64,000 nucleotides of DNA, taken from IMG/VR virus record IMGVR_UViG_3300043313_000346, positions 12,885 to 76,884 of that record; one strand, written 5' to 3'. Made by a program: the position numbers and the translations under genes. Below, one piece after another: positions 47,744 through 64,000 of the stretch (within the stretch, counting starts at the first letter, position 1; every line of letters starts with the position of its first letter). The notes below the pieces were generated by a model. That model was given only the letters and a program-made list of their open reading frames with translations, was not told where the DNA came from and ran no database searches. The stretch comes from a virus.

Positions 47744-49159
47744 TCAGCCGCCGTCGTTCTGGAATTGCTCGAACAGTTCGCGCAGATCGAGCGGGGCGCC
47801 TTCGGTGCCGTCGCTCAGCACCGGCTTGGCCTCATAGCTGCGCCGATCGATCAGCCAGCGCGCGATGCCCGGGCCGGCGGGCCCGCGCTCGCCGCGCGGA
47901 CCCTGCACGCCCTTCTCGCCCTTGGTGCCGTGCGCCACGAGCAGTTGCCAATCATCGCCCGGGATCGGGCCCGGGTTGTCCTTGCGCGCGACGAAGCTGC
48001 CCTTGTTGAACGCCACGATGTCGAGCGCGCGATATTTCTCGCTCTCGCTATAGGTGCCGCGCACATCCGGCGACGCGCCATCGCGGCCGCCGCGCGCGAG
48101 ACAAATCCAGTCGGCATGCGGCGGCGCATGGCCGGTGTCCTTGGTCGCCTGCCACAGCCCGCCGCCATGCGCGACGACCTGCGCCGCGTAGTGAACCGCG
48201 CCGAGCGCGTAGAGCTTGACGATCGGCAACATCCCGGGCGCGCCTCGATCGCCGACGTCGCCCTTGTCGCCCTTCTCGCCGGGCTCGCCGCGTGGGCCGA
48301 CGTCGCCGGCTTTGCCGACAAGGCCAGCCACACCTTGCTCACCTTTTTCGCCGCGATCGCCGGTGGGTCCGACGTCGCCCTTCAATCCCATTTCGCCACG
48401 CTCGCCGGGCTCGCCGATGAGCCCGCGTTCGCCGGCAGGACCGGAGGGACCGACAGCGCCGGGCTCGCCAGCGAGGCCCGGATCGCCGGCAGGGCCGGGA
48501 TCGCCCTTCAGCCCAATATCGCCTTGCGGACCTGTTCCGCCGTCAGCGCCGCGCTCGCCGGCAGGTCCGGCGGGTCCAGCAGGTCCGATGTCGCCTGCGG
48601 CGCCACGTTCGCCGGTGGGGCCGGCTGGCCCGGCAGGACCGGCTTCGCCGACGGCGCCACGTTCGCCTGCGGGTCCGGCGGGTCCGACGGCACCGATGGC
48701 GCCGCGTTCGCCTGCGGGTCCGCGCTGTCCGATGATTCCGCGCTCGCCCTGCAATCCTTTTTCGCCGCGTTCGCCGGCTGGTCCGGTGGGTCCGGTCTCG
48801 CCGGCCGGGCCGGGCTGTCCGATGATTCCGCGCTCACCTTGCAATCCTTTCTCGCCAGCCGGGCCGGCGGGCCCGCGCTCGCCGTCTTTCACTTCGGCGA
48901 GCCGCGCGCGCACCATGTCGAGCACTTCACCGCGCAGCGTCACGATCGCGGCCTGCATCTTGTCGATCGTGCCATGCGCCTTGGCGATCGCGCTTTGCGC
49001 CTGCGCCTCGATCAGCGCGCGCTCGCGTTCCCAATGCCGGCGCTCTTGCACCAGCACTTCGCCGAGCGCCTCGCGCCATGCATCAAGCAGATCGTCGGCG
49101 GCCAATCCTTGAGGCGGCGCGTAGGATGTTTCTGACTTCCCGTTGGACGTTGTCGTCAT
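47744..49159 (-). CDS. collagen-like virion protein
   Basis: N-terminal coiled coil, long uninterrupted GXY run, two small W-containing domains. Confidence 0.85.
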   Translation of the reverse strand: MTTTSNGKSETSYAPPQGLAADDLLDAWREALGEVLVQERRHWERERALIEAQAQSAIAKAHGTIDKMQAAIVTLRGEVLDMVRARLAEVKDGERGPAGPAGEKGLQGERGIIGQPGPAGETGPTGPAGERGEKGLQGERGIIGQRGPAGERGAIGAVGPAGPAGERGAVGEAGPAGPAGPTGERGAAGDIGPAGPAGPAGERGADGGTGPQGDIGLKGDPGPAGDPGLAGEPGAVGPSGPAGERGLIGEPGERGEMGLKGDVGPTGDRGEKGEQGVAGLVGKAGDVGPRGEPGEKGDKGDVGDRGAPGMLPIVKLYALGAVHYAAQVVAHGGGLWQATKDTGHAPPHADWICLARGGRDGASPDVRGTYSESEKYRALDIVAFNKGSFVARKDNPGPIPGDDWQLLVAHGTKGEKGVQGPRGERGPAGPGIARWLIDRRSYEAKPVLSDGTEGAPLDLRELFEQFQNDGG

Positions 49160-50537
49160 GGCCTTTGCCTTCGACTGGTGACGCGGGCGGCTCGGACGGT
49201 TTCTTTTCGTCGGGCTTGGCGAGCAGCGCAGTCGGCGCGCCGGGCACCGACGGCGGCGCGCCGGGACCGGGCGCTGCCGGGATCGCGCCGGCTGCGGAGA
49301 GCGGCACGACTTGTTGTTGCACGCGCGGCTCGTCGCCGAACTTGACCTCGTCGAATCCTTCACGCACGCGCGCTTCATTCGGAGCCATCACGCCGCCCTG
49401 CACGGCTTTGACCAAACCGTCGATGCGGTCTTTGAAGGCCGAGCGCAGGAGGGCGGCGGTGTCGAATTCGAGATACTCTTCAGGCTGCCCCTTCAATTGA
49501 AACAGCAACCCGAACGCCTCTTCGATGTGGTTGAGCGCAAAGCCGAGCCCGGTGGCGATCCATTGCTGCATCAACGCTTCAGTCGACGTGACGCCGGTGC
49601 CGCCGAGACCGAGCAGCGATAGCGGGATGCGATAGGCCAGCGCGACGTTCTGCCCCGACAACTTCATGATCTCGGCAAGCTCGGCATCCTTCGCGCCCAT
49701 CGCCCACGGCTGCACCTTCAGGCCGGCGGTGAGGATCGGCGTGCCGCCTTGCTGCAGCCCGCGCACCTGTTCGTTCCAGCGATCGCGCAGCGCCTGCACC
49801 TGATCCTTGTCAAGCTGCAGGTCGGTCGACAGCACGGCGCTCGGCCGCGCTTGGTTCATGTAGAAATTGATCTGTTGCTTCAGCATCGCGTTGCCTGCCG
49901 CGATGTCGTTCGCCGCCGCCTCGATCGGTGAAGCGCCGATCAGCGGAAACGGATAGCGCCGCGAGGGATGCAAGCGCACGTGCAGCACGTCGCGCTGCGG
50001 CACCAGCACTTCGCCCAAGCGCTCCATCACGTCATTGCCGCCGAGCCGATAGAACACATCTCCGGTCGAGCGCACGACCTGCGGCGCCGACTCGCGCGGG
50101 CTCATCAGATGAAGCTCGTCGATCTCGTAGCGATCGTTGCGCAGCGCCAGCGCGTAGGCATTGCCGTCGAGAAACAGCGAACGCGTCAGGCTCAGCATGA
50201 AATCGCTGATCGTCTGATACAGGTTTGGCCTGCGCAGAATGCGCGACAGCGCCGATGTGGAGATGCGATCGCGACCGTTCTTGACGTTCATCCGCCAGTG
50301 ATCGCCCGGGCACATCGCCACGGTCTGGCTGTAGGCCGAGAGCGCGGCTTCGACCATCGCCGATGAGCCCGACATATCGATCGGGTCATAGCCAAGCTGC
50401 CACCAGTTGATGTTCTCGCCGACATAGGCAGGCAGAATCCCGCCCGTGACAGGTAGCTGCCACGGGCCGGGATGATAATCGCCCTCGCCCTTCGTGACGG
50501 GCGAGGGCGCGCGGCCTACGAGCGGAACGTGCCTCAT
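49083..50537 (-). CDS. HK97-family portal protein
   Basis: RPN.YQT..DF..L.LDGNAY; DVLH.R; G.SP; P.AVL; G...PNEAR. Confidence 0.93.
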   Translation of the reverse strand: MRHVPLVGRAPSPVTKGEGDYHPGPWQLPVTGGILPAYVGENINWWQLGYDPIDMSGSSAMVEAALSAYSQTVAMCPGDHWRMNVKNGRDRISTSALSRILRRPNLYQTISDFMLSLTRSLFLDGNAYALALRNDRYEIDELHLMSPRESAPQVVRSTGDVFYRLGGNDVMERLGEVLVPQRDVLHVRLHPSRRYPFPLIGASPIEAAANDIAAGNAMLKQQINFYMNQARPSAVLSTDLQLDKDQVQALRDRWNEQVRGLQQGGTPILTAGLKVQPWAMGAKDAELAEIMKLSGQNVALAYRIPLSLLGLGGTGVTSTEALMQQWIATGLGFALNHIEEAFGLLFQLKGQPEEYLEFDTAALLRSAFKDRIDGLVKAVQGGVMAPNEARVREGFDEVKFGDEPRVQQQVVPLSAAGAIPAAPGPGAPPSVPGAPTALLAKPDEKKPSEPPASPVEGKGHDDNVQREVRNILRAASRIGRRRSA

Positions 50538-50539
50538 GT

Positions 50540-50881
50540 TCAGCTTGTCGGTTCAGCCGGCCTCGATTGACGCGTCTGATACCCGCCCGGTGCCGGGCGC
50601 TTCGCTTCCGACTGCTTGGTCTGCTTGGGCGGGAAGCTCTGATCCTGCTCAGGGCTGCCGTCGGGCTCGTGCTCGGGCACATGAACGCCCATCGCAGCGA
50701 GATCGTTTTCCTCCTGCGTCGGTGTCGGCTTGCCGGCTTCCGGCGCTTCCTTGGCTGCCGCCTCGCGAGCTTGGCGCTGCTCGGCGACGACCTTCTTTGC
50801 GTTTTCTTGGCGCTCCTTATCCGCCTTCTGGGCTTCCTGTGCCCGCGCCTGTGCTGCTTGGTCGCTTGATTGATCGGTCAC
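50540..50881 (-). CDS. hypothetical head-region protein
   Basis: GGAGG RBS; PTPTQEENDL. Confidence 0.75.
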   Translation of the reverse strand: MTDQSSDQAAQARAQEAQKADKERQENAKKVVAEQRQAREAAAKEAPEAGKPTPTQEENDLAAMGVHVPEHEPDGSPEQDQSFPPKQTKQSEAKRPAPGGYQTRQSRPAEPTS

Positions 50882-50961
50882 GATGGACCTCCTTGTTTCA
50901 ACGGTGGGGAGTTGAAAGCCCCGCCAGAGTTGGCGGGACTCTCAGACGTCAACGCGTGAGA

Positions 50962-53232
50962 TCACCAAGTGACGCCGGCCATCCACGCGACCACGCCAGT
51001 GCGGCGCAGCGTCCAGTTCAGCGGCATGATCAACCGCAGGGCCAAGCTGTCGGTCTGGTAGAGCGACCGCACCGGAGCGGCGACAACGGCGGGCGTGCCC
51101 GGCGTGCCGATCGCGAGCGGCGTGGTGTCTTCCATATGCAGCGTGGCCTGATCGCTGATCTCGAAGCGGGGAGCTTCGCCGCCGACGGACACGAAGTCCG
51201 CAGCGTCGACCGCGATCACCGTGCCAACCGGCACAGTGCCCGCCGCGATCACCGGATAGGTCAGCAACTGGTTGCGCCCGATCTCTTCCTTGAACGGGAA
51301 CGCGCCAGTGCCCGGTGCGCTGGTCAGCGACAGCGTCAGCTTCTGCGCCGGGTTGATCAGCCACACCAGCTTGCGGATGTTGCCGTTGGTGCCAGTCATC
51401 AGCGCGCCGGCGATCTTCTGCAGATCGCCCACCACCGCGTTGAAGCCGCCGCCCGTCGTCGGCGTCAAACCAGCGACGCCGTTGAGCAGCCCAGCGGGAC
51501 GAACCGTCGTCGCCGGGTTGGTATCGAGCAGCACGGCATCGATCGACACCGCCGTGTCCTGCTTGATCGCATCCCGCAGCAGCCCCTCGATCGCGGGCAC
51601 GCTGTGTTCATCGATCTCGCGAGTCCACGTGGTGATCACGGCCATTTTCTTCGGCGTGAGCAACGCCGCCGTGAACGCACCCTGCCGCACCGGGATCGGC
51701 GCGCCTTCACCAACGAACGAACCGGCGATCGTCGGCGTGAGCGAGCGCGTCGGCACCGAGATGCGACCGTTGCGCCCGAACGACAGGGAGAGCCCCGCCG
51801 CCGAGAGCGACGGAAACACCACGTTGGGATAGAGCGGCTCAAGGAAGTCGGCGTTGACTTGCTGCACCAGTTCAGCGGCCCAGCCGACGACGTTGGTCAT
51901 CGCCGGCGCGGTGGCGGCCTTGGTGGTGAAGTCCATGAACGCCTTGGTCGCTTCGTCGTCGCCGTAGATCGCCTTGCGCATCTCGTCGACGTTGCGCTTC
52001 TCGCGGTGTGCGAACAGCCGCACCACGCCATCGCGCACGAGATACTCGATCGGCTCGATGGTCTTCGGCTTCAAGCCGAAGGGCCGCGACGAGCGCGACG
52101 GCGCGACCGTAATCGTCGAACCGTTGCCCTTGTCGTGACCGTTGCCGTTGCCGTTGCCGTTGTCGGCATCGGACGAAAGCAACAGGCTCTTCTCGGACTC
52201 CTTGAGCGACGCGAGACCCTTTTCTTCCTGCTTGATTCTCGCGTTCAGTTCGTTGGTGGTCTCAAGGTCGGAGTCGCTGACATTGCTGTCGTCGACGTTC
52301 TTGAGATGCTCGGTCAGCTTGTCTCGGTAGGCGACGATGCGCGCCTGCGAGTCAGTGATACGTTGTGCAAAAACAGACATTGACTTGCCCATCATGGGAG
52401 ATGTGTCGGCGGGCTTGCCGGTGAGCCGACGATCGTGTTCGAGCGCGTCCCGGCTGCCGGGCTTGGCAAAGACGCGCTTGATCGTGTCGTCGGAAATGCT
52501 GAGAGACTTGGCGACCGCGAGAGCGTTCGGATTGGCCGGCACCGTCACCAGTGATGTCTCGACCAACTCTTGAGCGAGGTAGCGCGAGCCCGCGAAGGGA
52601 TCGCCCTTGACGATCGGCTCGTGCTGTTTCGGCGCGAAGCCGACGCTCACGGCTTTGAGAATGCCGTGCTCGATCAGCGCGTGAATTTCATCGACGCGCG
52701 GAATCTTTCCTTTGGGCAGGAGATCGAGCTTGCCGCGCAACTTGCCGTCGACGACGCGCAGGTTCGACCATGTGCCGATCGGCCAGTTGCTGTTGTGATT
52801 GAACAGCGCGACCGGATTTTTCTTGAAGTTTTCCAAATCCCAGCCGGTCGACATGATGATGTCGTTCATGCGATCGGGCGTCTCGTCGGACATGACGAAT
52901 TCGCGCTCGATCACCGGCTCGGCGTGTGTCTTGCGAACGACGTTGCCGTTGCTCTTGGTCTTCGTGGCGCTGCGCGTGTCGGCCCAAATCACGCGGCATT
53001 CGTCCGCGTCCTCGCCGTCCTCTTGGCAGCGGTCCATCCAGTCGGCGAACTCTTCGTCGTCCTCGGGCGTGAGCGCCTTTTTCTTTTCCTTCTCGCCCTC
53101 GCTGAACATCGTGAGGCAGGCAGCCGTCGCCTGCTCGTTGTCGCGCTTGCCGTCGCCCATCATGTCGGGCACGCAGCGCTTCATGAAATCGGCTTGGCTC
53201 TCGCCCTTGTTCGGCTTCATCGGCATGGTCAT
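50962..53232 (-). CDS. prohead protease-major capsid protein fusion (HK97 fold)
   Basis: DR.ND, NPV.LFNH, VSVGF, L.E.SLVTVPAN protease motifs; delta coiled coil; FVGEG..IP capsid motif. Confidence 0.95.
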   Translation of the reverse strand: MTMPMKPNKGESQADFMKRCVPDMMGDGKRDNEQATAACLTMFSEGEKEKKKALTPEDDEEFADWMDRCQEDGEDADECRVIWADTRSATKTKSNGNVVRKTHAEPVIEREFVMSDETPDRMNDIIMSTGWDLENFKKNPVALFNHNSNWPIGTWSNLRVVDGKLRGKLDLLPKGKIPRVDEIHALIEHGILKAVSVGFAPKQHEPIVKGDPFAGSRYLAQELVETSLVTVPANPNALAVAKSLSISDDTIKRVFAKPGSRDALEHDRRLTGKPADTSPMMGKSMSVFAQRITDSQARIVAYRDKLTEHLKNVDDSNVSDSDLETTNELNARIKQEEKGLASLKESEKSLLLSSDADNGNGNGNGHDKGNGSTITVAPSRSSRPFGLKPKTIEPIEYLVRDGVVRLFAHREKRNVDEMRKAIYGDDEATKAFMDFTTKAATAPAMTNVVGWAAELVQQVNADFLEPLYPNVVFPSLSAAGLSLSFGRNGRISVPTRSLTPTIAGSFVGEGAPIPVRQGAFTAALLTPKKMAVITTWTREIDEHSVPAIEGLLRDAIKQDTAVSIDAVLLDTNPATTVRPAGLLNGVAGLTPTTGGGFNAVVGDLQKIAGALMTGTNGNIRKLVWLINPAQKLTLSLTSAPGTGAFPFKEEIGRNQLLTYPVIAAGTVPVGTVIAVDAADFVSVGGEAPRFEISDQATLHMEDTTPLAIGTPGTPAVVAAPVRSLYQTDSLALRLIMPLNWTLRRTGVVAWMAGVTW

Positions 53233-53314
53233 GCCCTCCGTGCGCGCGAGCGCGCGTGTGCGCGCACGGGGGTGCGCGCGCGTGCAAGCGTTCAGGTCTG
53301 GTGGTTGGTGCCGG

Positions 53315-53536
53315 CTACTTCGGCTTGGTGCGCGCTAACGTCTTCTCGGCTCTCGCCCGCGCGCGCGTCGCGAGATGCTTGCGATAATGCTTGTCGCGGA
53401 TTCGCTTCTTGCGCTCTTCGTCGGTCTCGTCGGTGCGCTTGCCTTCAGGGCTCAGCCAGTGAGGCGCGCCGGTTTCCATCTCGTGCGCGAGAATGTCGAT
53501 CTCGTGTTTCTCAGGTCTCTCGGGTTTCTTCGCCAT
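53315..53536 (-). CDS. small basic protein (73 aa)
   Basis: Starts right after the ART stop; ends RARARAEKTLARTKPK. Confidence 0.65.
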   Translation of the reverse strand: MAKKPERPEKHEIDILAHEMETGAPHWLSPEGKRTDETDEERKKRIRDKHYRKHLATRARARAEKTLARTKPK

Positions 53537-53538
53537 GA

Positions 53539-55431
53539 TCAATCGTGCTTCTGCAGCGGCGTGCCACCAAGCCCGGGCGCCTGTCCCTGCCACACGTCCC
53601 AGCCCTTCCATGCGGTGCCGGCGATCACGACTTCCTGCTCGCTCTTGATGTTGATGCCGTAGGCCGGGATCGAGATCGCTGCGGTGCGCGGCACGACCGC
53701 CCGAAGCACGACCTTGCCGCCGCCGCTGCCGCCCCATCCATTGGCGACGGTGAGCGCTGTCGTGGTCGACGCGGCGCCGTTGCGCTTCACGTCCATCGTC
53801 GGGAGATGCGTGAAGCTGCCGACGCGCTTGCCGGCCGCCGCATGCTTGGTGAAGATTTTCTCGACCAGCGCCTTGTCGAGCGTCAGCCCGCGATAAAGCT
53901 GCAGTTCGTTCTCGCCTGCCTTGTCGAGCAGATGCTGCGTCGTTTCCCATTTCGCGCGGATCAGCGCCTTGACGCCGGCATAGCCGCCGATGAACGGGAA
54001 GATGCGATCGGCGCGGGCGCGCGCCTTGTCCGGCTCGATCGACGCGCGGGTGTGCGCGTTGAGCCGGCCGCCAAGCTCTTCGGATGTGGCAAGCTGGATC
54101 AGCTTGCCGTCTTCCGACGTCGAGCTTTCCTTCCAGCTTTTCCAAAGCTCGTTGTCGGCCTCGCGCAAATCTTTTTCGTCGGGCTCTTCGATGCCGCGCT
54201 CGGCCATGATTTCCTTCGCGCGCTCGCGCGAGAGATAGCGCGCCAGAATCTGCGTGCGGCGATAGTCGTCGCCGCTGGTGTTATTGAGCGGATCGTATTT
54301 CGTCGGCAGCCGATCGAGCTTGGCGGCGTCGAGGTTGGCGACCGATGCATTGTCTTCCTGCCCGCCGCCCTTGTCCTCGTCGAGGATCGACGTGTTGTTC
54401 TTCGTCCAGTCGAACTTCTGCTCATCGTCCATGCTGTCCCAATACTCGTGAACCGACTCCTTGGCCTGATCCGCGAGATAATCCGGCGGCGACAGATCGC
54501 CTTGCACCTTCTCGGCGCGCTTCTCGAACGCCGCGAGCAGCGAGTCGGTGATGTCCTTGCGCATGTCCTCGGTGAGCATCTCGTGCGGCTCGATCGGCTC
54601 GATGCCGGGCAGCGTCTGCTGATCCGGATCGAAGCCCGCCGGCTTGGTCAGCTTGCTGTCGTCGAACACGATCTCCGGGTCTTTCTTCGGCCATGAGCCG
54701 CCTTGACCTTCCGGATATTCGATGTTGATCGCGTTCACCAATTGCTTGCTGTCGAACGGGTATTTTTCGCCGCCGCTTTCCTCGTGCTCGGCGATCACTT
54801 CATCGAGCGCCTCGACCGCCCATTCGATGTCGTCGGATGCATTGCCCTCGTTAAAATCCTCGGCGACCTTCTGCTTGGCTTCGTCGTTCGCATATTCTTC
54901 GTACCAATTGTTTTGCTCGCTCTCTAAAACCTCTTGGTACGCCTGCGATTCATATTCCTGCTCGGCCATCTGTTGGGCCGTCTCGGTCATCGCCGCCCAT
55001 TCTTCCGGCGGCCCGTAGTATTCCTCTTCGTCTTCGTCATCGCTCGCGCCGGGCTCGACGGCGCCGATCGCCTGTTGCTCCAGCCGCTCGATCGCCGGAC
55101 GCGCGGTCTGAAACTCGCGTTCGAGTTTCTCGGCGGTCTTTTGATTCCACGTGTCGCCGCCGACATTGGTCACCACCGGATCGAGCTTGACGTCGCCGCC
55201 GTCGCCCGCCGCCGGCTTGGCTGATCCGCCGGCAGTGTCACCACCGCCGCCGTCAGTCCATTTGCCGGTCTCGTCGCGCGGGTGCTCGCTCTCGTCATAC
55301 TCACGACGAAGGCGTGCCAATGTTTTCTCAGCTTGTGCCCGCGCGAGCGCCGCGCGCTGTGTCGGCGTCAACCGCGCCAGCGCGTTGCGTTTGGCTTGCT
55401 CCCACAGATAGCCGGTGGCCATCGTCGTCAT
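53539..55431 (-). CDS. putative virion-packaged ADP-ribosyltransferase (R-S-E clade)
   Basis: N-terminal YDESEHPRDETGKWT; C-terminal LYRG..ASTT..SEQEVV. Confidence 0.75.
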   Translation of the reverse strand: MTTMATGYLWEQAKRNALARLTPTQRAALARAQAEKTLARLRREYDESEHPRDETGKWTDGGGGDTAGGSAKPAAGDGGDVKLDPVVTNVGGDTWNQKTAEKLEREFQTARPAIERLEQQAIGAVEPGASDDEDEEEYYGPPEEWAAMTETAQQMAEQEYESQAYQEVLESEQNNWYEEYANDEAKQKVAEDFNEGNASDDIEWAVEALDEVIAEHEESGGEKYPFDSKQLVNAINIEYPEGQGGSWPKKDPEIVFDDSKLTKPAGFDPDQQTLPGIEPIEPHEMLTEDMRKDITDSLLAAFEKRAEKVQGDLSPPDYLADQAKESVHEYWDSMDDEQKFDWTKNNTSILDEDKGGGQEDNASVANLDAAKLDRLPTKYDPLNNTSGDDYRRTQILARYLSRERAKEIMAERGIEEPDEKDLREADNELWKSWKESSTSEDGKLIQLATSEELGGRLNAHTRASIEPDKARARADRIFPFIGGYAGVKALIRAKWETTQHLLDKAGENELQLYRGLTLDKALVEKIFTKHAAAGKRVGSFTHLPTMDVKRNGAASTTTALTVANGWGGSGGGKVVLRAVVPRTAAISIPAYGINIKSEQEVVIAGTAWKGWDVWQGQAPGLGGTPLQKHD

Positions 55432-55506
55432 CGCTCGGGCACCATGATTGACGGTTGATCCGCCTCGGGCGGGCGCGGGCGCGGCAGCGGATGATCTGCG
55501 AACGGA

Positions 55507-55683
55507 TCACCAGCCTCGAAAGGGCACGAGGCCGAAGATCACCAGAATGCCGACGATCACCAGCACCACGACGATGAGCATCAGACCCTTGCCGAGAAAG
55601 CCTTCCTCGACGTTGATGCCCATCCACCACTTGATGACGAATCCGATGATGATGAGCACCGCAGCGGCGATTAGAAAACTCAT
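55507..55683 (-). CDS. two-TM membrane protein, 58 aa (not in ORF track)
   Basis: AGGAGG RBS; MSFLIAAAVLIIIGFVIKWW...LIVVVLVIVGILVIFGLVPFRGW. Confidence 0.7.
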   Translation of the reverse strand: MSFLIAAAVLIIIGFVIKWWMGINVEEGFLGKGLMLIVVVLVIVGILVIFGLVPFRGW

Positions 55684-55692
55684 GACGCCCTC

Positions 55693-56079
55693 CTATCCGC
55701 GCGGGCCCGCGCGCGAGGCACCTGCAGCAACCGGCGCGTCTGGCGTCTCGACCGCGATGCCGAAGCGGCAGTCGACGTTCTGCTGCACCGGATGCGCCTT
55801 CGTGCCGGACCTGAACTTGATGAAGTTGATCGACTTCGTCCAAGCCTCGGCGACCACGATGCCGCTGTCGGGCTTGGCGGTGATGGTGATCGGATCGCCC
55901 TTGCTGTCGTGCAGATCATTGTAGAAGTTGCCGTCGGTCGACACCTGAAAGGTCAGGTTCGCTTCGGTGAATTCCTGCGGCACGGTGATGCGAACGATGG
56001 TGCCGGCCGAGCAGTCGGCGCCGTCGGACAGCGATTCACCAGCGGCAATGGTCGGCCCGTCAACGATCTGCAGCGTCAT
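55693..56079 (-). CDS. beta-rich putative virion protein
   Basis: GGAG RBS; TIAAGESLS..LTFQVS.DG. Confidence 0.75.
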   Translation of the reverse strand: MTLQIVDGPTIAAGESLSDGADCSAGTIVRITVPQEFTEANLTFQVSTDGNFYNDLHDSKGDPITITAKPDSGIVVAEAWTKSINFIKFRSGTKAHPVQQNVDCRFGIAVETPDAPVAAGASRAGPRG

Positions 56080-56095
56080 GGTCGTTCTCCGTTGG

Positions 56096-56377
56096 TTACT
56101 TGGTGCGGCAGCGCAGCTTGCCGGTCTGCTCGCGCGTGCGGCCGGCTGCGGTGGTGATGGTGTTGATCAGCGCGTAGTCCTTGCCGGCGGTGCCACCGCT
56201 CAGCCAGATCGTGCATGTCGTCGGCGTGAACGTCTCTTCGCCGCCGATGAGATCGGTGTCCTCGGGCAATTGCCATACCGACGACACGATGGTGTCGCCG
56301 GCAAGCGGCAACGTCCAATCGATGACGTAATCGAGAACCTCTTCCGGGTCTTTCGGATCGTCCCAAGGCTTCGCCAT
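56096..56377 (-). CDS. fibre adaptor-like protein
   Basis: KDP.EVLDY.IDW..WLSGGT.G..Y...N.ITT..GRT. Confidence 0.75.
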   Translation of the reverse strand: MAKPWDDPKDPEEVLDYVIDWTLPLAGDTIVSSVWQLPEDTDLIGGEETFTPTTCTIWLSGGTAGKDYALINTITTAAGRTREQTGKLRCRTK

Positions 56378-56378
56378 T

Positions 56379-58949
56379 TTATGCTGCCAGCTTTGTCGAT
56401 CGGCGCGGCGTCTCGATCGTCCTGTCGTCGCGCTCGGCGGCGAGCACGCGGTTGCTGCGCTCGACGAAGATGGTGCGGCCTGCCGCCGTCACCGTGATGA
56501 TGCGCCCGACGTCGGGCATCTCGATCGCTCTGCTTGCGGCTTCGACACCGATCGGCAGCGCGGCGCCCTCGGCCGCAATCACCCGGCTGAATGCGTCGGG
56601 CACGAGCACGCGGCTCGCCGCGTAGGCCGCGAGCGTGTTGTTGCTCGCCGCCGGTTCGAGCACCCGATCATCGGCGGCGACTTCGAGCTTTCGATCGTCG
56701 ACGTCGGGATAGAGAATCTGCCCGACGGGCGTTTGCGTGATCGCGCCTTCGCCGGCGATCGATGCACTGCCTGCGGCGAGATCACCGCTGCCGACAAGCC
56801 CGCCGATCGCGACGCCGGAAATGCTTGGCGGCTGCGCGACGAGCACGCCGCGAGCGGCGACGTCGTTGACGCCCTCGATGCCGACGACGATCGCGGCTGA
56901 CGCGGCCAGCGCGCCGCTGCCGTGTGACAGCGACGCGCCGCTGCCGGCAACTGTGGCTTGGCTGACAAGCGCGGCGCTGCCGACAGAACCGGAGAGGCCG
57001 GCGCCGGTGACGGCGGCTTGCCCGGGGTTAAGTGTGCCGGACGCGGCCCAGCTTACAGCGCCGATGCCGTTGAGGCTGGACGCGGAAGCGGACAACGCGC
57101 CGGCGGCGAGCCATTGCGCAGTGCCGGTGCCGATCAGGCGCGCGGCTTGCGCCTGCAGGGCACCGACGGCGCCCCAATCCTTCAGACCGAAGCCGGTGAC
57201 GTGTGCGCCCGCGCACGCGAGCGCGCCGGTGCCGATCGAGAGCGAGAGACCGAGCCCGCTGAGCGTTGCCGACTGCGCGCGCGGCGCGCCGGTGCCCGCG
57301 ATCGTGGTGACGCCCTCGTAACCGGTGACGGATGCGAGCGACGCCTGCAGGATTCCGCTGGCGCTTGATGCCGAGATGCCGCTGCCGGTGATCGTGCTCG
57401 GCTGCGCCTGCAGCGCAGCGGAGATTGACCAGAAAGCGACGCCGAGACCGCTGACGACAAACGGGGAGGAAACGACCAGCGATCCCGACGCCGTCCAACT
57501 CGCAACGCCGGCGCCAGTGAGGGTCGATGCCGAAACGGCGAGCGAGCCGGAACCGTACCAGAACGCAGAACCGAGACCGACGAGACGCGCACCCTGCGCG
57601 ACGAGAATGCCAGTGCCGCCCCAACTCCACGCGCCCGCGCCTATGACGCGCGCGGGACGCGCGATGAGCGCGCCCGACGCGGCGAGCGCGGCAGTGCCGG
57701 CGCCGCTGACGACCGACGGCTGTGCGGCGAGCACGCCGGCCGCGCGCCAGATCGCGAAACCCGCGCCGGTGAGGCTCGATGGCTGCGCGATGAGCGCGCC
57801 AGTGCCGCCCCAACTCTGCGCACCGACGCCGTTGACACGCGCGCCCTGCGCAACCAGCACACCGGCGCCGAGCCATTCGGCCAAAGCCGTGCCAACGATG
57901 ACACCGCTTTGCGCCTGCAGCGCGCCGGACCCGGCGACGATCTCGATGCCTTGAACACCGACGACCGTGGACGCCCCGGCAACCAGCACACCGTTGCCGC
58001 CGGTGCCGACAGCACCGACACCGAGAATGCTGCTCGCGCCGCTTGCCGGCTGGCCTGCGCCGATCGAGCGCGAGAGACCTGCGCCGCTGAGCGTGGCCGG
58101 CTGCGCGGCGAGCGTGCCGCTGCCGCCATATCCTGCAGCACCAGTGCCGGCGAGACTCGATGTCGCCGCGATCAGTGTGCCGCTGCCGTATGCGGTCGGC
58201 TGGCCGGCCCCGAAGATGGTCGCAGGCGGCGCGACCAGCGCGCCGGCGCCGATCGAGCGCGAGATGCTCGCGCCGCTAAGCGTGACACCCTGCGCGGTGA
58301 GCGCGCCGCTGCCGGATGCTTGCGCGAGGCCGCTGCCGGCCAGTGTCGCGGCCGAAGCGCCAAGAGCGCCCAGCCCAAACGAGCGCGAGAGGCCGACGCC
58401 GCTGATCGTGCTGCTCTGCGCGACCAGCGTGCCGGCGCCGAGCGCGATCGTGATGCCGGCGCCGCTGCCGGTGACCGTCGACAGCGAAGCGAGCAGCGCG
58501 GCCGACGTCGAGCGCGAACTTGAGACGCCGGCGCCGGTGACGGCACTCGCACCGCTGAGTGGTGCGCCGGCGCCAACCGATGCGATGCTGCCTGCACCGC
58601 TGAGCGTTGCAGTGCCTGCAGCGAGCGCGCCGACACCGATTGATCGAGAGACGCCAACACCGGCGAGCGTCGCGCCCTGTGCGGCGAGTGTGCCTTGCGC
58701 GATCGAGCGCGCGATGCCGGCGCCCGCGATCGTCGCGGATGATGCAGCCAGCGCACCAGCGCCGAGCGATGCGACGATGCCGCTGCCGGCGAGCGCCGCC
58801 TGCTGCGCCGGCAATGCGCCGGTGGCTTGCGATGACGAGACGCCCGCCCCGGTGATCGCCGCACTGCCTGCGGTCAGCGCGCCGTTACCGGCGACACCGA
58901 GCGCACCGGGCAATTGTCCAAGCGCGAGGCGACCTAGTGCGTCGAACAT
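56379..58949 (-). CDS. Gly/Ala-rich 21-aa-repeat filament protein
   Basis: More than 30 repeats of G.GAL.A..AT..G.G. Confidence 0.85.
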   Translation of the reverse strand: MFDALGRLALGQLPGALGVAGNGALTAGSAAITGAGVSSSQATGALPAQQAALAGSGIVASLGAGALAASSATIAGAGIARSIAQGTLAAQGATLAGVGVSRSIGVGALAAGTATLSGAGSIASVGAGAPLSGASAVTGAGVSSSRSTSAALLASLSTVTGSGAGITIALGAGTLVAQSSTISGVGLSRSFGLGALGASAATLAGSGLAQASGSGALTAQGVTLSGASISRSIGAGALVAPPATIFGAGQPTAYGSGTLIAATSSLAGTGAAGYGGSGTLAAQPATLSGAGLSRSIGAGQPASGASSILGVGAVGTGGNGVLVAGASTVVGVQGIEIVAGSGALQAQSGVIVGTALAEWLGAGVLVAQGARVNGVGAQSWGGTGALIAQPSSLTGAGFAIWRAAGVLAAQPSVVSGAGTAALAASGALIARPARVIGAGAWSWGGTGILVAQGARLVGLGSAFWYGSGSLAVSASTLTGAGVASWTASGSLVVSSPFVVSGLGVAFWSISAALQAQPSTITGSGISASSASGILQASLASVTGYEGVTTIAGTGAPRAQSATLSGLGLSLSIGTGALACAGAHVTGFGLKDWGAVGALQAQAARLIGTGTAQWLAAGALSASASSLNGIGAVSWAASGTLNPGQAAVTGAGLSGSVGSAALVSQATVAGSGASLSHGSGALAASAAIVVGIEGVNDVAARGVLVAQPPSISGVAIGGLVGSGDLAAGSASIAGEGAITQTPVGQILYPDVDDRKLEVAADDRVLEPAASNNTLAAYAASRVLVPDAFSRVIAAEGAALPIGVEAASRAIEMPDVGRIITVTAAGRTIFVERSNRVLAAERDDRTIETPRRSTKLAA

Positions 58950-58962
58950 CTAAGCGCGCCTT

Positions 58963-59148
58963 TTACTCGGCTGGCTTGATCGGCTTTTGCTCCAGTTCGA
59001 ACTTGCCGTTGGCGACGCCTTCCAGCACGTTGATCGCCGGCAGCACCGCCATCCAGTCGGCGCCAGTGGTCGGCACGATCGGCAGCGCGCGCTGGATGTA
59101 CATCAGCAGTGCCATCGCGCTTTGCCGGGTGATCGCTGATTCATCCAT
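58963..59148 (-). CDS. small protein downstream of fibre
   Basis: TGATG coupling. Confidence 0.65.
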   Translation of the reverse strand: MDESAITRQSAMALLMYIQRALPIVPTTGADWMAVLPAINVLEGVANGKFELEQKPIKPAE

Positions 59149-61025
59149 CAGTTAAACGCCAGCGGCGCGCCTTCAAGCGCGGTCACACGCGCGCGCAGCG
59201 CCTTCAATTCCTGCAGGATGACCGGGACATATTTGCTGTAGTCGATGCCCCACCAGTCCTTGTCTTTGTCGTAGGTGACCGCCGCCGGATAAATCTGGTT
59301 GGCCTGTTGCGCGATCACGCCGTAGTTGCGCACGCCGGTCGCCTTCCACGCGAAGTCATAGACCTTGGTGTCGTCGACGATGTTGCCTGCGTCGAACGAT
59401 TTCAAATCTTCCTTCAGCCGCTCGTCCGACGATGTGGCATAGCTGGTCGAGGTGGTGGTGACACCGATGCCGCCGACATTCACGCCGCTGCGGGTCCAGT
59501 AGATCAGGCTGCCATCGACGTTCTGTCCGATGTAGATGCGGCCATAACTGTCCGCGTTCCAATACATCTCCGGGCCGTAGGTCGTGTTGTAGCGATAGGT
59601 CCAGCCCTTTGTGGTGTTGCCAGCGCCGGGGCTTGAGCTTGGTGTCAAGCTTGGTGGGCTGGCCCATCCTGCGCCGAGCAACACATCGCTGTCGATTGTC
59701 ATCGTGCCGGTCACGCGGCTGATGCCAAATGCGCGCGCGGCACCGCCACCGGCGTCGTTGTAGCGGTACAGCGCAAAATCCGAGCCGACGTTGCCGCCGC
59801 TCTCGGCGGAGTTATTGCCGAACTGCATCGTCCAGCGATCGAGCCCGCCCTTGCGCCCGACGATGTGGTTCTGACTGCCCGCCGCACCACCGAGCGCGAT
59901 GAGGGGATTGGTCTTGTTGATCGTGAGATCGCCGGTCAGCGTCATCGCAGCGGTCGCGCGGGTGATCGTCAGCGGCGTGCCGAGAGTAGCGCCCGCGTCA
60001 GTGTAGCTGCGCAGGAGAAAATCCGAGCCCGCGTTGCCGCTGCTCTCGGCGCCCCACCCGAAGATCATGTCCCACCGCACGACCCCGTTCTTGAGCCCGA
60101 CAACAGCACCAGCGTTTGCGAGCGGCGCATCGAGCGCAAGGGCGGGAAAGGCTGCGGTCTTGATCGTGAGATCGGCGGTGAACGTTGCCTTGCCGGTCGC
60201 GCGGCTGATGCTGAGCACGTCGCTGAGCACGTTGCCGGCATCGTCATAGCGCGTGATGTAGAAATTCGAGCCGGCGTTGCCGCCGGTTTCTGCATCGCCC
60301 GCGCCCGGCATGATCAGCCAGCGGTTCAAGCCGTTATATTGGCCCCAGATCGCTCCACCGGCGATGCTGGTCTTGTTGAGGATCAGCGCCGGGCTCGCCT
60401 TGGCGATGCGCAGATCGCCGCCATTGACGGTGAGGCCGTAATAACACGTCACCAGACCGTTCGATCGCGTGATGCCGAACGGGTTGATGGTGTTGATGCC
60501 ATCATCGCGAAACGCGCGCATGATGAAGTCCGAGCCGACGTTGCCGCCGCTCTCGGCGCTGCCGTCGCCCATGAAAAAATCCCAGCGCACAAGGTTGTTC
60601 TTCATGCCCTGCACGATCGGCGAGCCGGCACCGGCGGGGCAATTGATCTGCACCGCCGTGTAGGGCCCGGGCGACGTCACCTTGATGCTGCCCTCGATCG
60701 TATCGCCCTTGCGCGAGACGTAATCTTCCGAGCGCACGCAGATAAAAATCTGTGCCGATCCCGACAGCGCGATCGCCGCGTTGCTGTTGGTCGAGTTGGT
60801 CGGCGTGCGTCCGGTCAGTTGCGGCCCGGTCGCGCTATAGGTCGCGGTGCCGACTTCGCTGTTGGCCCCGTCGGCGATGCCGTAGGAGATCAGATCGCCG
60901 TCGGCGACACCGGAGAGTGCGAACGACAGATAGCCGGCGACCGCAACACCGAGCGCGATGGTCGCGCCGGCGCCGGTGGTCGGCGTCGTCATCCGCGCCA
61001 GATTGGTGAGCTTGGCCGCCGCCAT
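59148..61025 (-). CDS. second fibre protein with S74-type chaperone domain
   Basis: Four RW..G...ESGGN.GSDF repeats; SDERLKED..GVIAQ..IDYSK. Confidence 0.88.
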   Translation of the reverse strand: MAAAKLTNLARMTTPTTGAGATIALGVAVAGYLSFALSGVADGDLISYGIADGANSEVGTATYSATGPQLTGRTPTNSTNSNAAIALSGSAQIFICVRSEDYVSRKGDTIEGSIKVTSPGPYTAVQINCPAGAGSPIVQGMKNNLVRWDFFMGDGSAESGGNVGSDFIMRAFRDDGINTINPFGITRSNGLVTCYYGLTVNGGDLRIAKASPALILNKTSIAGGAIWGQYNGLNRWLIMPGAGDAETGGNAGSNFYITRYDDAGNVLSDVLSISRATGKATFTADLTIKTAAFPALALDAPLANAGAVVGLKNGVVRWDMIFGWGAESSGNAGSDFLLRSYTDAGATLGTPLTITRATAAMTLTGDLTINKTNPLIALGGAAGSQNHIVGRKGGLDRWTMQFGNNSAESGGNVGSDFALYRYNDAGGGAARAFGISRVTGTMTIDSDVLLGAGWASPPSLTPSSSPGAGNTTKGWTYRYNTTYGPEMYWNADSYGRIYIGQNVDGSLIYWTRSGVNVGGIGVTTTSTSYATSSDERLKEDLKSFDAGNIVDDTKVYDFAWKATGVRNYGVIAQQANQIYPAAVTYDKDKDWWGIDYSKYVPVILQELKALRARVTALEGAPLAFN

Positions 61026-61028
61026 TGA

Positions 61029-61406
61029 TCAGACCGGCGCGCTGTAGGTCAGGCTGGTGAGCGAGACCTGTTGCCCGGCCGAGATCACCACGCTGTTCAA
61101 CGTGATGTCGCCGCCGCCGCCGGTGGCGGTGACCGAGCACAGGACGACCGGCGTGGCGGCGCCCTGCCGAAGCTCGGCCTTGGCGATGGTGCCGCCGGCC
61201 GCGTTGGTGTCGGGCGCGATCGCGTTCGCGGTGGCGGTGCCGTTGGCTGCCGCGCCGAATGCCGGATTGGCGAGGGTCAGTGTCGCGACCGGGACGTTGC
61301 CCGACGTCAGAAACACCAGCTTGCCGGGCGGTGTGTTGAGATCGAGTTGATCGACCACCAGATCGCACATCAGGTTGCGGATCGCGGTCGGATGCGTGAC
61401 TGCCAT
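61029..61406 (-). CDS. small structural (fibre-associated) protein
   Basis: GGAGG RBS; beta-rich Gly/Ala/Thr. Confidence 0.75.
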   Translation of the reverse strand: MAVTHPTAIRNLMCDLVVDQLDLNTPPGKLVFLTSGNVPVATLTLANPAFGAAANGTATANAIAPDTNAAGGTIAKAELRQGAATPVVLCSVTATGGGGDITLNSVVISAGQQVSLTSLTYSAPV

Positions 61407-61410
61407 TGGT

Positions 61411-61590
61411 CTATCCCTCCCCTGTCATCGTTGCCTGCGGCCCGCCCTCGCGCACCTTGCCTTGCTCGATCCAGCGCGGAATCAGCGCGCGCAGCGCGAC
61501 ATCTTCCTCGCGCGCCTCGTAGGACAGGCCGGCGACGTATTCACTGCCAAGCTCTTCGCAAAAGAAGCTGTCGATCACCGTGAAGCGCAT
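61411..61590 (-). CDS. hypothetical protein, 59 aa (not in ORF track)
   Basis: GAGGA RBS; MRFTVIDSFFCEELGSEYVAGLSY... Confidence 0.65.
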   Translation of the reverse strand: MRFTVIDSFFCEELGSEYVAGLSYEAREEDVALRALIPRWIEQGKVREGGPQATMTGEG

Positions 61591-61624
61591 GATGTCCTCA
61601 AAGCTGTGCCAGTGTTTGTGGGAC

Positions 61625-62032
61625 TTAGACCGCGCTCAACGCGGCCACGATCAAACCGTAGGCGGCGAGCAGCGCGCCCAAGAGATAGAACGCGCCGTTC
61701 GGTCCCCAGCAAAACGGCAGCGGCAGCGGCGGCAGCATCTGCGCGAGCGGCGGCTGCATCATCAACCGGCGCGCCTCATTCGGCGACAGCACACCGGCTC
61801 GAAGCGCGTTCGCGAGATTGGCGGTGGTGAGGCTCATGTCCGACTCCAAGATCATCACGCGATGCGCGTTGCCCTCGTAGGCTTGCCGCCAGCGCTCGCG
61901 CAGGCGCGCGAGGCCATCGGGCGACAGTTTCATCGTGCTCACGAAAACGGCGTTCGGGCTCACGCGCGCGGGTGCGGGCGGGCGCACGAGCACGCGCGGA
62001 ACGTGGTGCTCGGTGTAGTGCCAGTGTCCCAT
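61625..62032 (-). CDS. mini-portal-like protein (clip + crown motif + C-terminal TM)
   Basis: PNAVF..LSPD..RLRERW..Y.GNA.RV.ILE then GVLSPNEARR and a hydrophobic tail. Confidence 0.65.
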   Translation of the reverse strand: MGHWHYTEHHVPRVLVRPPAPARVSPNAVFVSTMKLSPDGLARLRERWRQAYEGNAHRVMILESDMSLTTANLANALRAGVLSPNEARRLMMQPPLAQMLPPLPLPFCWGPNGAFYLLGALLAAYGLIVAALSAV

Positions 62033-62260
62033 TCACGTCTCGTCGAGCTTCTCGCGCAGTTGGCGCGACGTCATGATCTCGATCTCGGCGCCGCCATCGA
62101 GCACCAGCGCGCGCACGTGCGGCACGATCTCCTTGATCGACTCGCGGATGCGATGCGCGGTCTCGGCGGTGAGCATCTTGTCGGTCTTGAACACGATCAC
62201 GTCGCCCGGCTGCAGTGTCAGCTTGGCGATGCGATATTCGAGATCGGGCTTGGTGCTCAT
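62033..62260 (-). CDS. portal-clip-like small protein B
   Basis: Paralog of 62257-62532; ATGA-coupled. Confidence 0.7.
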   Translation of the reverse strand: MSTKPDLEYRIAKLTLQPGDVIVFKTDKMLTAETAHRIRESIKEIVPHVRALVLDGGAEIEIMTSRQLREKLDET

Positions 62261-62532
62261 GCGGCCTTCGCACGCTCGTCGCGCAGCACCATCAGATTCA
62301 GCCCGCTGGTGAGGATGACGATGTGGGTGCCGGCGGGGAATTGCTCTTGCGCCCGCGCGCGAAGCTCGAAGCACTGATCCTTCGTGAGCATGAAATCAGT
62401 GCGCAGCACAACGATGTCGTTCGGCTGCAGTTCGAGCTTGGCGATCTCCATCGCGGCGATCGTGAACTTGACCGTTTCGGGCCGGTCCCTGCGGCCCGGC
62501 ATCTTGGTCTTCCCTGCCTTCGCCTTGCGCAT
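62257..62532 (-). CDS. portal-clip-like small protein A
   Basis: Aligns by eye with the resident portal segment at about 49704-49847. Confidence 0.7.
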   Translation of the reverse strand: MRKAKAGKTKMPGRRDRPETVKFTIAAMEIAKLELQPNDIVVLRTDFMLTKDQCFELRARAQEQFPAGTHIVILTSGLNLMVLRDERAKAA

Positions 62533-62535
62533 GCT

Positions 62536-64000
62536 TCACCCGATCAGTGCTTCAATATCGATCGGCTTGACGTTCTTGATCAGCGCCAGCGAGAACGCCA
62601 TCGCGAGCGCCTGCACGCCGTCGATGCGCCCGCTGCTCTTGACCTTGTCTAATTTGCGGAAGCCGTCGGCGTTGCGCGTCGCGACCGCGTTGGCCACGTT
62701 CCACGCCAGAATCTGGTTGCCGCCGTGGCGGATGCGCTGCTGAAAGATCAGCCGTTCGAGCACGTCGATCGCACCGTTCATGTCCTTGAAGCCCTGCCCG
62801 TGCGGGGTGAGCAGGACGCGGCAGCCGATCTCGTCGAGCGCGCGCTGTAGCTCGGTGATGCGCCACGCGTCGAACGCGATCGAGGTTATCCGATAGCGTC
62901 CGTTCAACTCGGCGATCTTGTGCGCCACCATCTTCGGATCGGTGCCCTCGCCGGCGGGATACAAGAGACCGTTGCGCACCCACACGTCATAGGGCGCCAT
63001 GTCCTCGTGCGAGCGCTCGATGATGTTGCCGGGCAGCCAGAAGTGCGGCTGCACATGGAAGACGTCGTCGGCATCGGCCCACACCAGCACCAGCGCCGTC
63101 ATGTCGCGCGTGGCGCCGAGATCGACCGCACCGAACACCTTGGCGCCGTCGGGAATGTGCGCTTGCGCGCCGCAGGTCTTCCAGCGCTCGCGCTCGAACA
63201 GCTTGGCTTCGGCAGCGACCCGCTGGTTGAGGATCAGATTGCGGAAGCGGTTCTCTTGGCTCGGCATCGCGCGCGCCTGCTCGGCTTGGCGCTTGACGTC
63301 GGCATAGCTGCGGAAATCCCCCATCGCCGGGTTGGCGAGCAGCCACGTCGCTTCGCTCTCGATGTCGGCGTCGACCGGCGCCTGATACAGCGTGAGATGA
63401 AACGACGGATCGTCGATCTCGCCGTGCTGCACGCGTAAGCCGTGATCGATCAGGGTCGAGAGCGGCGCGTGATCATCCGCCGCTTGCGTCGAGATCACCA
63501 GCATCAGCGGGTTGGCGCGCGCACCCTGCGCACTGTCCATCGCATCATAGAGCTTGCGATCGCGCGCGCTGCCAAGCTCGTCATAGACCACGAAGCTCGG
63601 TGACAAGCCCATCTTGGTGCGCGCTTCGGCCGAGAGCGCCTGAAAGGTCGAGCCGGTGACCATATCGAGCATGCGCTTCTCGTGGCTCACGATGTTGACG
63701 CGGCCCTTGAGTTGCGGATGCTTCAGGATCGACGCCTGCGCCTCTTCGAAAATCTTGGTCGCCTGCTTGCGATCGTTGGCGCAGCTATAAGCCTCGCCGC
63801 GCTCTTCGCTCTCGGGCCCGAACGTGTGGCAGAGCGCGAGCAAAGCGGCGAGCGCGGTCTTTCCGTTTTTGCGTCCCATCGACAGGATCGCGGTGCGAAC
63901 CGGGCGCACGCCGTTCTCGTCGCGATAGACGTCCTCGATGAACCGACGCTGCCACGGGCGCATCTTGAACATCTTGCCGATGTCGGGCCCGCTCGTGATC
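62536..64000 (-). CDS. terL: terminase large subunit, 5' partial
   Basis: GRKNGKT Walker A, VVYDE, ISTQ, AVDLG nuclease motif, RIDG; frame open to the window edge. Confidence 0.96.
   Translation of the reverse strand, partial: ITSGPDIGKMFKMRPWQRRFIEDVYRDENGVRPVRTAILSMGRKNGKTALAALLALCHTFGPESEERGEAYSCANDRKQATKIFEEAQASILKHPQLKGRVNIVSHEKRMLDMVTGSTFQALSAEARTKMGLSPSFVVYDELGSARDRKLYDAMDSAQGARANPLMLVISTQAADDHAPLSTLIDHGLRVQHGEIDDPSFHLTLYQAPVDADIESEATWLLANPAMGDFRSYADVKRQAEQARAMPSQENRFRNLILNQRVAAEAKLFERERWKTCGAQAHIPDGAKVFGAVDLGATRDMTALVLVWADADDVFHVQPHFWLPGNIIERSHEDMAPYDVWVRNGLLYPAGEGTDPKMVAHKIAELNGRYRITSIAFDAWRITELQRALDEIGCRVLLTPHGQGFKDMNGAIDVLERLIFQQRIRHGGNQILAWNVANAVATRNADGFRKLDKVKSSGRIDGVQALAMAFSLALIKNVKPIDIEALIG

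Follow-up and report, generated by a model that had tools for sequence, protein, structure and literature searches.

Small phage proteins apparently descended from the portal clip, and a probable portal-gene remnant, directly behind a large-terminase gene

Why would a phage that encodes a complete portal protein also carry, directly behind its large-terminase gene (terL), three short genes that each contain a stretch resembling one segment of that portal? The question is raised by a 64,000-nucleotide stretch of viral DNA (the window), which comprises the last 64 kb of the 76.9-kb IMG/VR record IMGVR_UViG_3300043313_000346, the end of the window coinciding with that of the record. The minus strand carries every gene discussed here. 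The three open reading frames (ORFs), the terminase gene and the portal gene are located as follows; the family profile is that of the small-protein family described below, and pI is the isoelectric point.

62536..63999, minus strand: terL, HK97-like large terminase subunit (PF20441 E 3.9e-31, PF03354 E 6e-20, phrog_9 E 6e-121)
62257..62532, minus strand: ORF1, 91 residues, pI 10, family core after a basic N-terminal tail (family profile 148 bits)
62033..62260, minus strand: ORF2, 75 residues, pI 6.1, paralogue of ORF1 without the basic tail (family profile 91.1 bits)
61625..62032, minus strand: ORF3, 135 residues, probable portal-gene remnant (PF04860 E 1.2e-8, phrog_12 portal E 5e-10)
49083..50537, minus strand: full HK97-family portal, 484 residues (PF04860 E 2e-65, 221 bits over model positions 3-321)

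The explanation that we favour, with a probability of roughly 0.6 for the whole of it, is that ORF1 and ORF2 belong to a clip-derived accessory family and that ORF3 is the relic of a portal gene. The first-pass annotation of this DNA had taken the three ORFs for three versions of one thing, a view that has to be abandoned: ORF1 and ORF2 fall into an old, widespread family of small proteins, and ORF3 appears as a lineage-specific portal remnant.

Other claims of that annotation withstood closer analysis. The three ORFs are intact and coupled behind terL at the coordinates claimed: a 3-nt spacer separates the terL stop codon from the ATG of ORF1, ORF1 and ORF2 meet in an ATGA in which the ATG of ORF2 overlaps the ORF1 stop, and the junction of ORF2 and ORF3 reads TGAATG. 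ORF1 and ORF2 are paralogues, as had been said (40% identity over 55 columns by blastp, E 5e-10), and the likeness of ORF1 to the resident portal, formerly counted by hand as 18 of 39 columns, is recovered by alignment (portal residues 229-275, 49 columns, 43% identity, E 1.3e-4). A clip-related segment is present in all three ORFs, being detected by the family profile in ORF1 and ORF2 and by PF04860 and phrog_12 in ORF3.

The G+C content at third codon positions (GC3) in the called frames of the three ORFs is 0.85-0.90, like that of terL and the capsid gene. A site search found no promoter-like site in the terL-ORF1-ORF2-ORF3 region and no terminator-like site between the three genes; its single terminator match lies inside ORF3 and is no better than those of shuffled sequences. 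ORF1 starts with a basic tail (nine Lys or Arg among the first 25 residues), after which come an IAKLxLxP[GN]D motif, with N for G at the turn, and a strand-helix-strand unit. A long, GTG-started reading of ORF2 (113 residues, 62033-62374) was rejected; it overlaps ORF1 out of frame, and the homologues begin at the ATG. In the closest relative, contig L006, the orthologues of ORF1 and ORF2 are ~99% identical and the two genes together show six synonymous and two non-synonymous differences, five and one of them in ORF2 (99% identical), a pattern that on these few data points in the direction of constraint. Of the comparison of synteny and of non-synonymous to synonymous change suggested earlier for related phages, the second half yields this 6-to-2 count and the first a synteny with the packaging module, which is described below.

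A profile of ORF1, ORF2 and their orthologue in the relative L003 was searched against 1.84 billion cluster representatives and retrieved 1998 proteins or clusters at E<=1e-3. Family members are stand-alone proteins of roughly 65-120 residues with a core of ~65 residues; the best 150 of the 1998 are all 65-182 residues long, and none of them is portal-sized. ORF1 (91.9 bits when the search is made in six frames) and ORF2 belong to this family by score and fall within its size range. The 109-sequence family alignment (A3) proved too heterogeneous for pattern scans; its consensus reads h-A-K-L-x-L-x-P-G-D, strand, T-D-x-x-L-x-x-x-Q helix, P-G turn, strand, G-x-x-L-x-V-L, in which the Asp is invariant and the Gly nearly so. 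About a quarter of the members have a basic N-terminal tail like that of ORF1. By eye, P0045, P0089, P0076, P0077 and P0060 carry a ribbon-helix-helix-like segment or zinc-ribbon-like Cys pairs. ORF3 is matched by the family profile at positions 25-64 only (20 bits) and lacks the N-terminal motif, for which reasons it is not counted as a member.

Profile scans with ORF1, ORF2 and the 109 members found no Pfam, NCBIfam or named PHROG model for the family; a few members overlap phrog_9736 and phrog_23805, both PHROGs without assigned function, and the neighbours in the ESM Atlas are 'hypothetical protein' clusters, 70-80% viral. Judged by its matches, the family is rare among cultured phages: among 50,697 phage records searched by tblastn, three members had either no match or three weak ones in Vibrio jumbo phages. 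Of the genome-contig scans the first found nothing and the second two loci, and a word-indexed search for ORF1 homologues of near length returned the query itself only. In the literature searched we found no described family or report of free-standing clip homologues or portal decoys. On sequence grounds, ORF1 and ORF2 represent a real, new family of small proteins derived from the well-known clip domain.

The derivation from the clip is supported as follows. The best solved relative of the resident portal is the HK97 portal 8cez (E 1e-39). Its segment resembled by the small proteins comprises residues ~229-281 (nt ~49695-49853) and sits between two long helices in strand-helix-strand order. 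The AlphaFold2 model of the portal is poor (mean predicted local distance difference test, pLDDT, 53), and only its element order was used: helix 204-227, strand 235-238, helix 244-263, strand 273-276, helix 282-301. We name the segment the clip because of this low-confidence topology and of the homology to HK97. In portals it is on the clip that the terminase, and later the adaptor, docks.

Residues 40-86 of ORF1 align to portal residues 233-281. Comparison of the family with the portal by hhalign gave a probability of 86.9% when the portal was a single sequence and 92.7% (E 4e-7) when it was an alignment, and the result did not change once the window proteins and their close kin had been removed. 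As a hidden Markov model (HMM), the family matches five portals of this group at the same position with 18-21 bits. Built without the window copies, the model gives 19 bits on the portal clip, a level to be compared with 2000 shuffled portals, none of which exceeds 5.3 bits; the best of 177,635 PDB sequences reaches 16 bits with the family profile, the natural PDB proteins all scoring below the portal. Among the 80 called window proteins, the profile without the window copies singles out ORF2 (99.4%), the portal (86.5%, residues 233-281) and ORF3 (82.1%), the next protein being at 2.5%. When the whole record was searched in six frames with the family profile, the matches were confined to ORF1, ORF2, the portal clip (E 2.8e-6; record 62594-62719, equal to window 49710-49835) and ORF3 (E 3e-5).

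Single members give the same result in pairwise comparison. The member of contig L028 is 44% identical to one portal over 54 residues (E 9.5e-11) and 49% identical to the portal of the window over 41 residues (E 2.9e-8), and the member of a Bradyrhizobium prophage (L024) matches a portal at E 1e-6. PF04860 (Phage_portal; 321 model positions, gathering threshold 39.1 bits) independently matches six of the 109 members and is their commonest Pfam match. ORF1 and ORF2 have no match to it, and ORF3 remains below the threshold with 35.0 bits at positions 160-206. By these measures the core of the small proteins, including ORF1 and ORF2, is homologous to the clip of HK97-type portals, far beyond chance. 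The strand-helix-strand core is common to the small proteins and to the clips of PF04860 portals (8cez/8fql, and 6tba of the gene transfer agent RcGTA), as is the motif V-L-x-T-D-h-x-L-x-x-[DE]-Q-x-x-x-L-[RK], Gly/Pro turn, I/V-L-x-x-G-L. The small proteins differ from a portal in that they stand alone, without wing, stem, tunnel loop or crown, in that they add an N-terminal strand and the invariant PGD turn, both absent from the portal, and in that they lack the conserved Trp of the portal helix, which is retained in the Bradyrhizobium prophage member. The residues held in common are mostly core and helix-cap positions of the beta-alpha-beta unit, which argues for common descent more than for surface mimicry.

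The location of the family genes was surveyed in roughly two dozen distinct contigs, several of them short and uninformative. A family gene follows terL directly in the lineage of the window and L006, in L024 (Bradyrhizobium sp. SRL28) and in L029, L043, L044 and L047, and with one gene in between in L003; in L031 it follows a terL fragment located upstream of the complete terL. It lies directly upstream of the portal gene in the Brocadiaceae-type group (L025, L032, L033, L048), 1.5-3 kb from it in L036, L038 and L040, upstream of terL within 3 kb in L034 and L037, and directly after the adaptor gene in L035. The association of the family with the packaging and head module is therefore strong, though not exclusive. 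The first-pass annotation had placed the small genes where a portal normally lies; this fails for the present lineage, in which the portal gene follows the capsid gene, and is correct for other phages, in which a member is found between terL and portal. In L031 (716-3913) a C-terminal terL fragment of 176 residues is followed by a family member (138-residue ORF) just upstream of the complete terL, an arrangement suggesting that the small gene is exchanged by recombination as one unit with the 3′ end of terL.

The AlphaFold2 model of ORF1, computed from the 109-sequence alignment (pLDDT 81), has a strand at 40-44, a helix at 51-64 and a strand at 70-74, and the conserved flanking stretches are confident yet unpaired, as expected if they pair in an oligomer. 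The fold check named by the first-pass annotation had a divided outcome: the order of elements in the model matches the clip, and fold searches give no significant match to portals. Among the top 50 Foldseek matches in viral models eight are portals, all weak, and the nearest ESM Atlas structures include two PF04860 clusters, likewise weak.

Several observations weigh against a descent from the clip and against a packaging role. The clip assignment in the portal rests on the topology of a low-confidence model and on homology to HK97, not on superposition. Foldseek of the ORF1 model against the PDB gave no match below E 0.7, the monomer being a generic beta-alpha-beta unit, and a wide VIA-align search (best Z 3.8) listed mostly units like 4-oxalocrotonate tautomerase and no portals. 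The best solved analogues are 4-oxalocrotonate tautomerases (Z 3.2-3.6, root-mean-square deviation 2.0-2.7 Å over ~40 residues of the model), small beta-alpha-beta units folded only as oligomers; ORF1 shares with them neither sequence relation nor the catalytic N-terminal proline, and the Z is, according to the tool, at the level of a common arrangement. A weak match to STAS also exists. In phages with other portal subtypes (L025, L036) the family member is unlike the clip of the phage's own portal. Some third of the loci lie away from packaging genes: in L009 the gene is 8.5 kb from terL, in L028 it lies between exonuclease-like and Pol III alpha-like ORFs (assigned by eye and size), and in L030 it stands among genes judged replication-related by eye. 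Finally, the few ribbon-helix-helix-like or zinc-ribbon-like N-terminal extensions, read by eye, hint at nucleic-acid-related roles.

On a rival view the family would be an unrelated small beta-alpha-beta domain for oligomerization or regulation, for instance a nucleic-acid-binding regulator, whose likeness to the clip came down to the common succession strand, capped helix, Gly/Pro turn, strand. Its structural neighbours are generic (4-oxalocrotonate tautomerase, FtsZ_C and OSCP, with STAS at 16 bits), the fusions and the basic tails of about a quarter of the members would suit such a regulator, and several loci are among ORFs that look replication-related by eye or size. Convergence leaves unexplained, however, that single members are 44-49% identical to portals with E down to 1e-10, that out of 80 proteins the profile selects the portal and ORF3, an independent remnant, while the rest stay at or below 2.5%, that no natural PDB protein equals the portal score, and that synteny with terL and portal is strong. 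Pure convergence is thus unlikely.

Other candidate relatives were examined and rejected. For STAS/SpoIIAA, PF01740 gave E 0.21 and 11.8 bits against a cut-off of 22.6 bits, and this with the long reading of ORF2, and the family profile matched SpoIIAA below threshold (E 0.065, 38 residues only). The likeness to AbrB/MazE-like antitoxins is limited to the L-x-P-G-D turn, with one member matched at E 0.009. The gpW protein of phage lambda (PF02831), a 68-residue head-completion protein encoded between terL (A) and portal (B), is of similar size and occupies the terL-portal slot that the family gene has in several phages. No match to it was found for ORF1-3 (E<=1) or for the 109 members (E<=0.01). 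The fold of gpW is two helices plus a hairpin, whereas the small proteins are strand-helix-strand, and in the window no functional portal gene comes after the slot.

Accepting the homology with the clip, the small proteins might still act on immunity or on competitors. Clip-only proteins could titrate the receptors Avs4 and Avs11 or bind the terminase of a rival phage or satellite, and tandem divergence would widen the range of targets. According to the literature consulted, both Avs4 and Avs11 sense the portal, and Avs4 binds portal monomers directly; the contact of Avs4 with the clip stated in the first-pass annotation is not described there. The genes are placed in a variable, accessory-like region, their copy number differs between relatives, and the tandem copies have diverged to 40% identity. 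Nevertheless, what is conserved in common with the portal consists mainly of buried or capping residues, the exposed face of the helix differs, and surface mimicry is not evident. Avs proteins are reported to envelop large parts of a fold through shape complementarity, of which a 45-residue unit is a small part. Moreover, members from phages with other portal types are unlike the clip of their own portal, and a defence-related context was seen in none of the loci inspected. The functional class of such a mimic would be that of the small accessory proteins acting on the packaging machinery, such as SaPI (Staphylococcus aureus pathogenicity island) Ppi and PICI (phage-inducible chromosomal island) Rpp. 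Ppi and Rpp target the small terminase; they have no portal-like sequence, and a satellite context is absent here. We regard a decoy or competitor-blocking function as improbable, to about the same degree as convergence.

ORF3 has a different history. Its elements, together with those of the insertion or deletion (indel) that contains it, are:

61823-61957, minus strand: clip-like segment of ORF3, residues 26-70
61763-61816, minus strand: crown-helix segment of ORF3, residues ~73-90, ending in GVLSPNEAR
61628-61696, minus strand: hydrophobic C-terminal tail of ORF3, residues ~113-135 (Kyte-Doolittle 2.29 over the last 19 residues)
61620..62032, minus strand: 413-bp indel, that is ORF3 from ATG to stop plus 5 nt, present here and absent from L006
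62018..62027, minus strand: 10-bp direct repeat ACACTGGCAC, copy 1, inside the 5′ end of ORF3 (read from the sequence)
61606..61615, minus strand: 10-bp direct repeat ACACTGGCAC, copy 2, 4 nt beyond the indel (read from the sequence)

PF04860 matches ORF3 at model positions 160-206. With a portal-family HMM, positions 230-262 and 359-390 abut in ORF3 and ~96 positions are missing between them, the clip being joined directly to the crown helix. What follows tracks the C-terminus of portals loosely, with gaps, and gives way to 23 very hydrophobic residues; a faint N-terminal piece of the portal may also remain. Since ORF3 is only ~35% identical to the portals at hand, the resident one included, it was not copied recently from the resident gene. 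In phages of the L025 type the portal gene occupies the place that ORF3 has here, directly behind the small genes. On its profile matches ORF3 is an in-frame, multiply deleted portal remnant of other origin than ORF1 and ORF2, and in our reading it is what is left of a portal gene that formerly stood behind the clip-like gene. In L006 (TerL 94% identical) the stop of ORF2 is joined directly to ACAAACACTGGCAC, and both flanks align at 91-98% by blastn and alignment. The copies of ACACTGGCAC bracket the indel with an offset of a few bases, one just inside one end and the other just outside the other end. Origin of the L006 state by deletion between these repeats was considered and rejected, as the flanks fit the exact 413-bp indel better.

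It might be argued that ORF3 has taken on a function as a new gene, its product being a membrane protein, tail-anchored and displaying a fragment of clip plus crown, which could for example serve superinfection exclusion or tie packaging to the membrane. The frame stays open through two or more in-frame deletion joints, GC3 is 0.87-0.90 throughout, the non-portal tail included, the start is coupled to the stop of ORF2, the C-terminus is strongly hydrophobic, and the identical sequence occurs on 10 contigs, ORF1 and ORF3 being carried by 8-10 contigs besides this one. On the other hand, no homologue of any length was found by word-indexed searches (near and longer lengths), by tblastn against the 50,697 phage records or by the viral-contig scan. 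ORF3 is absent from the nearest relative, whose locus is otherwise unchanged, no ribosome-binding site is obvious by eye, and in DNA of 68% G+C long open frames survive by chance. A point that also weakens our own reading is that one ORF3 sequence is known overall, so that selection on it cannot be measured. We consider a functional ORF3 improbable; open and coding-like as it is, ORF3 is probably a relic.

A portal gene formerly behind terL might also have left the three ORFs together as non-functional debris. ORF3 clearly looks like such a leftover, dispensable in the nearest relative, and recombination is frequent in the stretch from terL to the capsid gene. As a whole this reading is very unlikely, and for ORF1 and ORF2 it is already largely refuted: their family counts ~2000 clusters, its Asp is invariant and its Gly nearly so, and it has a motif that portals do not show; moreover, ORF1 and ORF2 have intact orthologues in three phages with mostly synonymous change, and their GC3 is of the coding type.

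The genomic setting agrees with that of related phages. The terL gene of the window is truncated by the contig end and lacks its first ~61 codons: it matches residues 62-549 of the L006 TerL at 94% identity and is ~43% identical to TerL of HK97-like coliphages. The missing codons are nowhere else in the record, so the contig was cut within the packaging module. CheckV rates the record 100% complete although it stops inside terL. Downstream of terL and the three ORFs come a 59-residue ORF, a virion-protein-like ORF, a tail fibre with an S74 chaperone domain, an 856-residue Ala/Gly/Ser-rich protein, a 630-residue protein, a protease-capsid fusion, a 113-residue ORF, the portal gene (49083-50537) and then the neck and a contractile tail. 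The fusion gene has this position within the terL-to-portal module:

50962-53232, minus strand: protease-capsid fusion

Relatives with TerL 60-94% identical, L003, L004 and L006 among them, keep the same order of terL, variable region, protease-capsid and portal, which indicates that the full portal gene has not been displaced. The order (window 49083-63999; compare L003 and L004) is unusual yet conserved, with the portal gene after the capsid gene and not after terL. The interval between terL and capsid gene is a variable region and recombination hot spot, occupied here by tail-fibre genes, in L003 and L004 by other genes and in L031 by a terL fragment.

Further observations concern this region and its surroundings. 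The 856-residue protein (56379-58949, minus strand) consists almost wholly of degenerate Ala/Gly/Ser-rich repeats, has no PHROG match and adjoins the 625-residue S74-chaperone tail fibre (59148-61025) between the terL and capsid genes; the block of both is present in L006 and absent from L003. A conserved protein of ~600-630 residues (window 53539-55431, minus strand; L003:9294-11105), with an acidic middle, a conserved C-terminal domain and no PHROG match, is encoded directly upstream of the protease-capsid fusion in this phage group. A collagen-like fibre protein with G-x-y repeats is encoded at 47744-49378 (minus strand); read at its longest, this gene runs ~300 nt into the 3′ end of the portal gene, and its true start is therefore probably further downstream. 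In L003, whose TerL is 89% identical, a Cys/His-rich ORF of 198 residues (7489-8085) is located between terL and the ORF1 orthologue.

We propose the following model. ORF1 and ORF2 would be two tandem copies, diverged from each other, within a family of small proteins that is widespread among phages and whose core measures ~65 residues; in this core a strand-helix-strand unit homologous to the HK97-type clip is preceded by an N-terminal strand with an invariant P-G-D turn. The family would be a stand-alone descendant of a piece of the portal. As a rule its genes accompany the packaging module, most frequently adjoining terL at its 3′ end or the portal gene at its 5′ end; ORF1 and ORF2 would be co-transcribed with terL in the late operon. 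Considering (i) the descent from the clip, (ii) the unpaired conserved edge strands and (iii) the synteny, the small proteins may work by contacts of the clip type, that is by edge-strand pairing and the clip helix, the partner being a component of head assembly or packaging such as a portal subunit, the nuclease domain of TerL or the adaptor encoded at 47101-47739. The decoy, inhibitor and terminase-regulator functions suggested in the first-pass annotation would be special cases of such contacts. A co-fold of full-length TerL (from L006) with ORF1 scored 0.00, which counts neither for nor against binding. Since the gene is missing from many related phages and varies in copy number, the proteins would be accessory modulators rather than core parts. 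A bolder version, tentative and on present evidence rather unlikely, is that phages have repeatedly carved clips out of their portals as mini-proteins beside terL, the window showing old copies (ORF1 and ORF2) together with a freshly whittled portal (ORF3). Free clips would then engage TerL, the adaptor, unassembled portal subunits or portal-sensing receptors, and would time or protect packaging or sabotage that of competitors.

The clip is the site at which the motor docks and the neck is later attached, and it belongs to a protein that is sensed by bacterial STAND receptors. Free-standing clip homologues that form a large family without annotation, and whose genes mostly lie at the terL/portal junction, would hence supply candidate modulators of the packaging interface, with packaging control, assembly chaperoning, inter-phage competition and immune evasion as candidate roles. 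It would also be a concrete example of a piece of an essential structural gene becoming an independent small gene. The family deserves a profile of its own, which would provide a testable label for thousands of terminase-side 'hypothetical proteins'.

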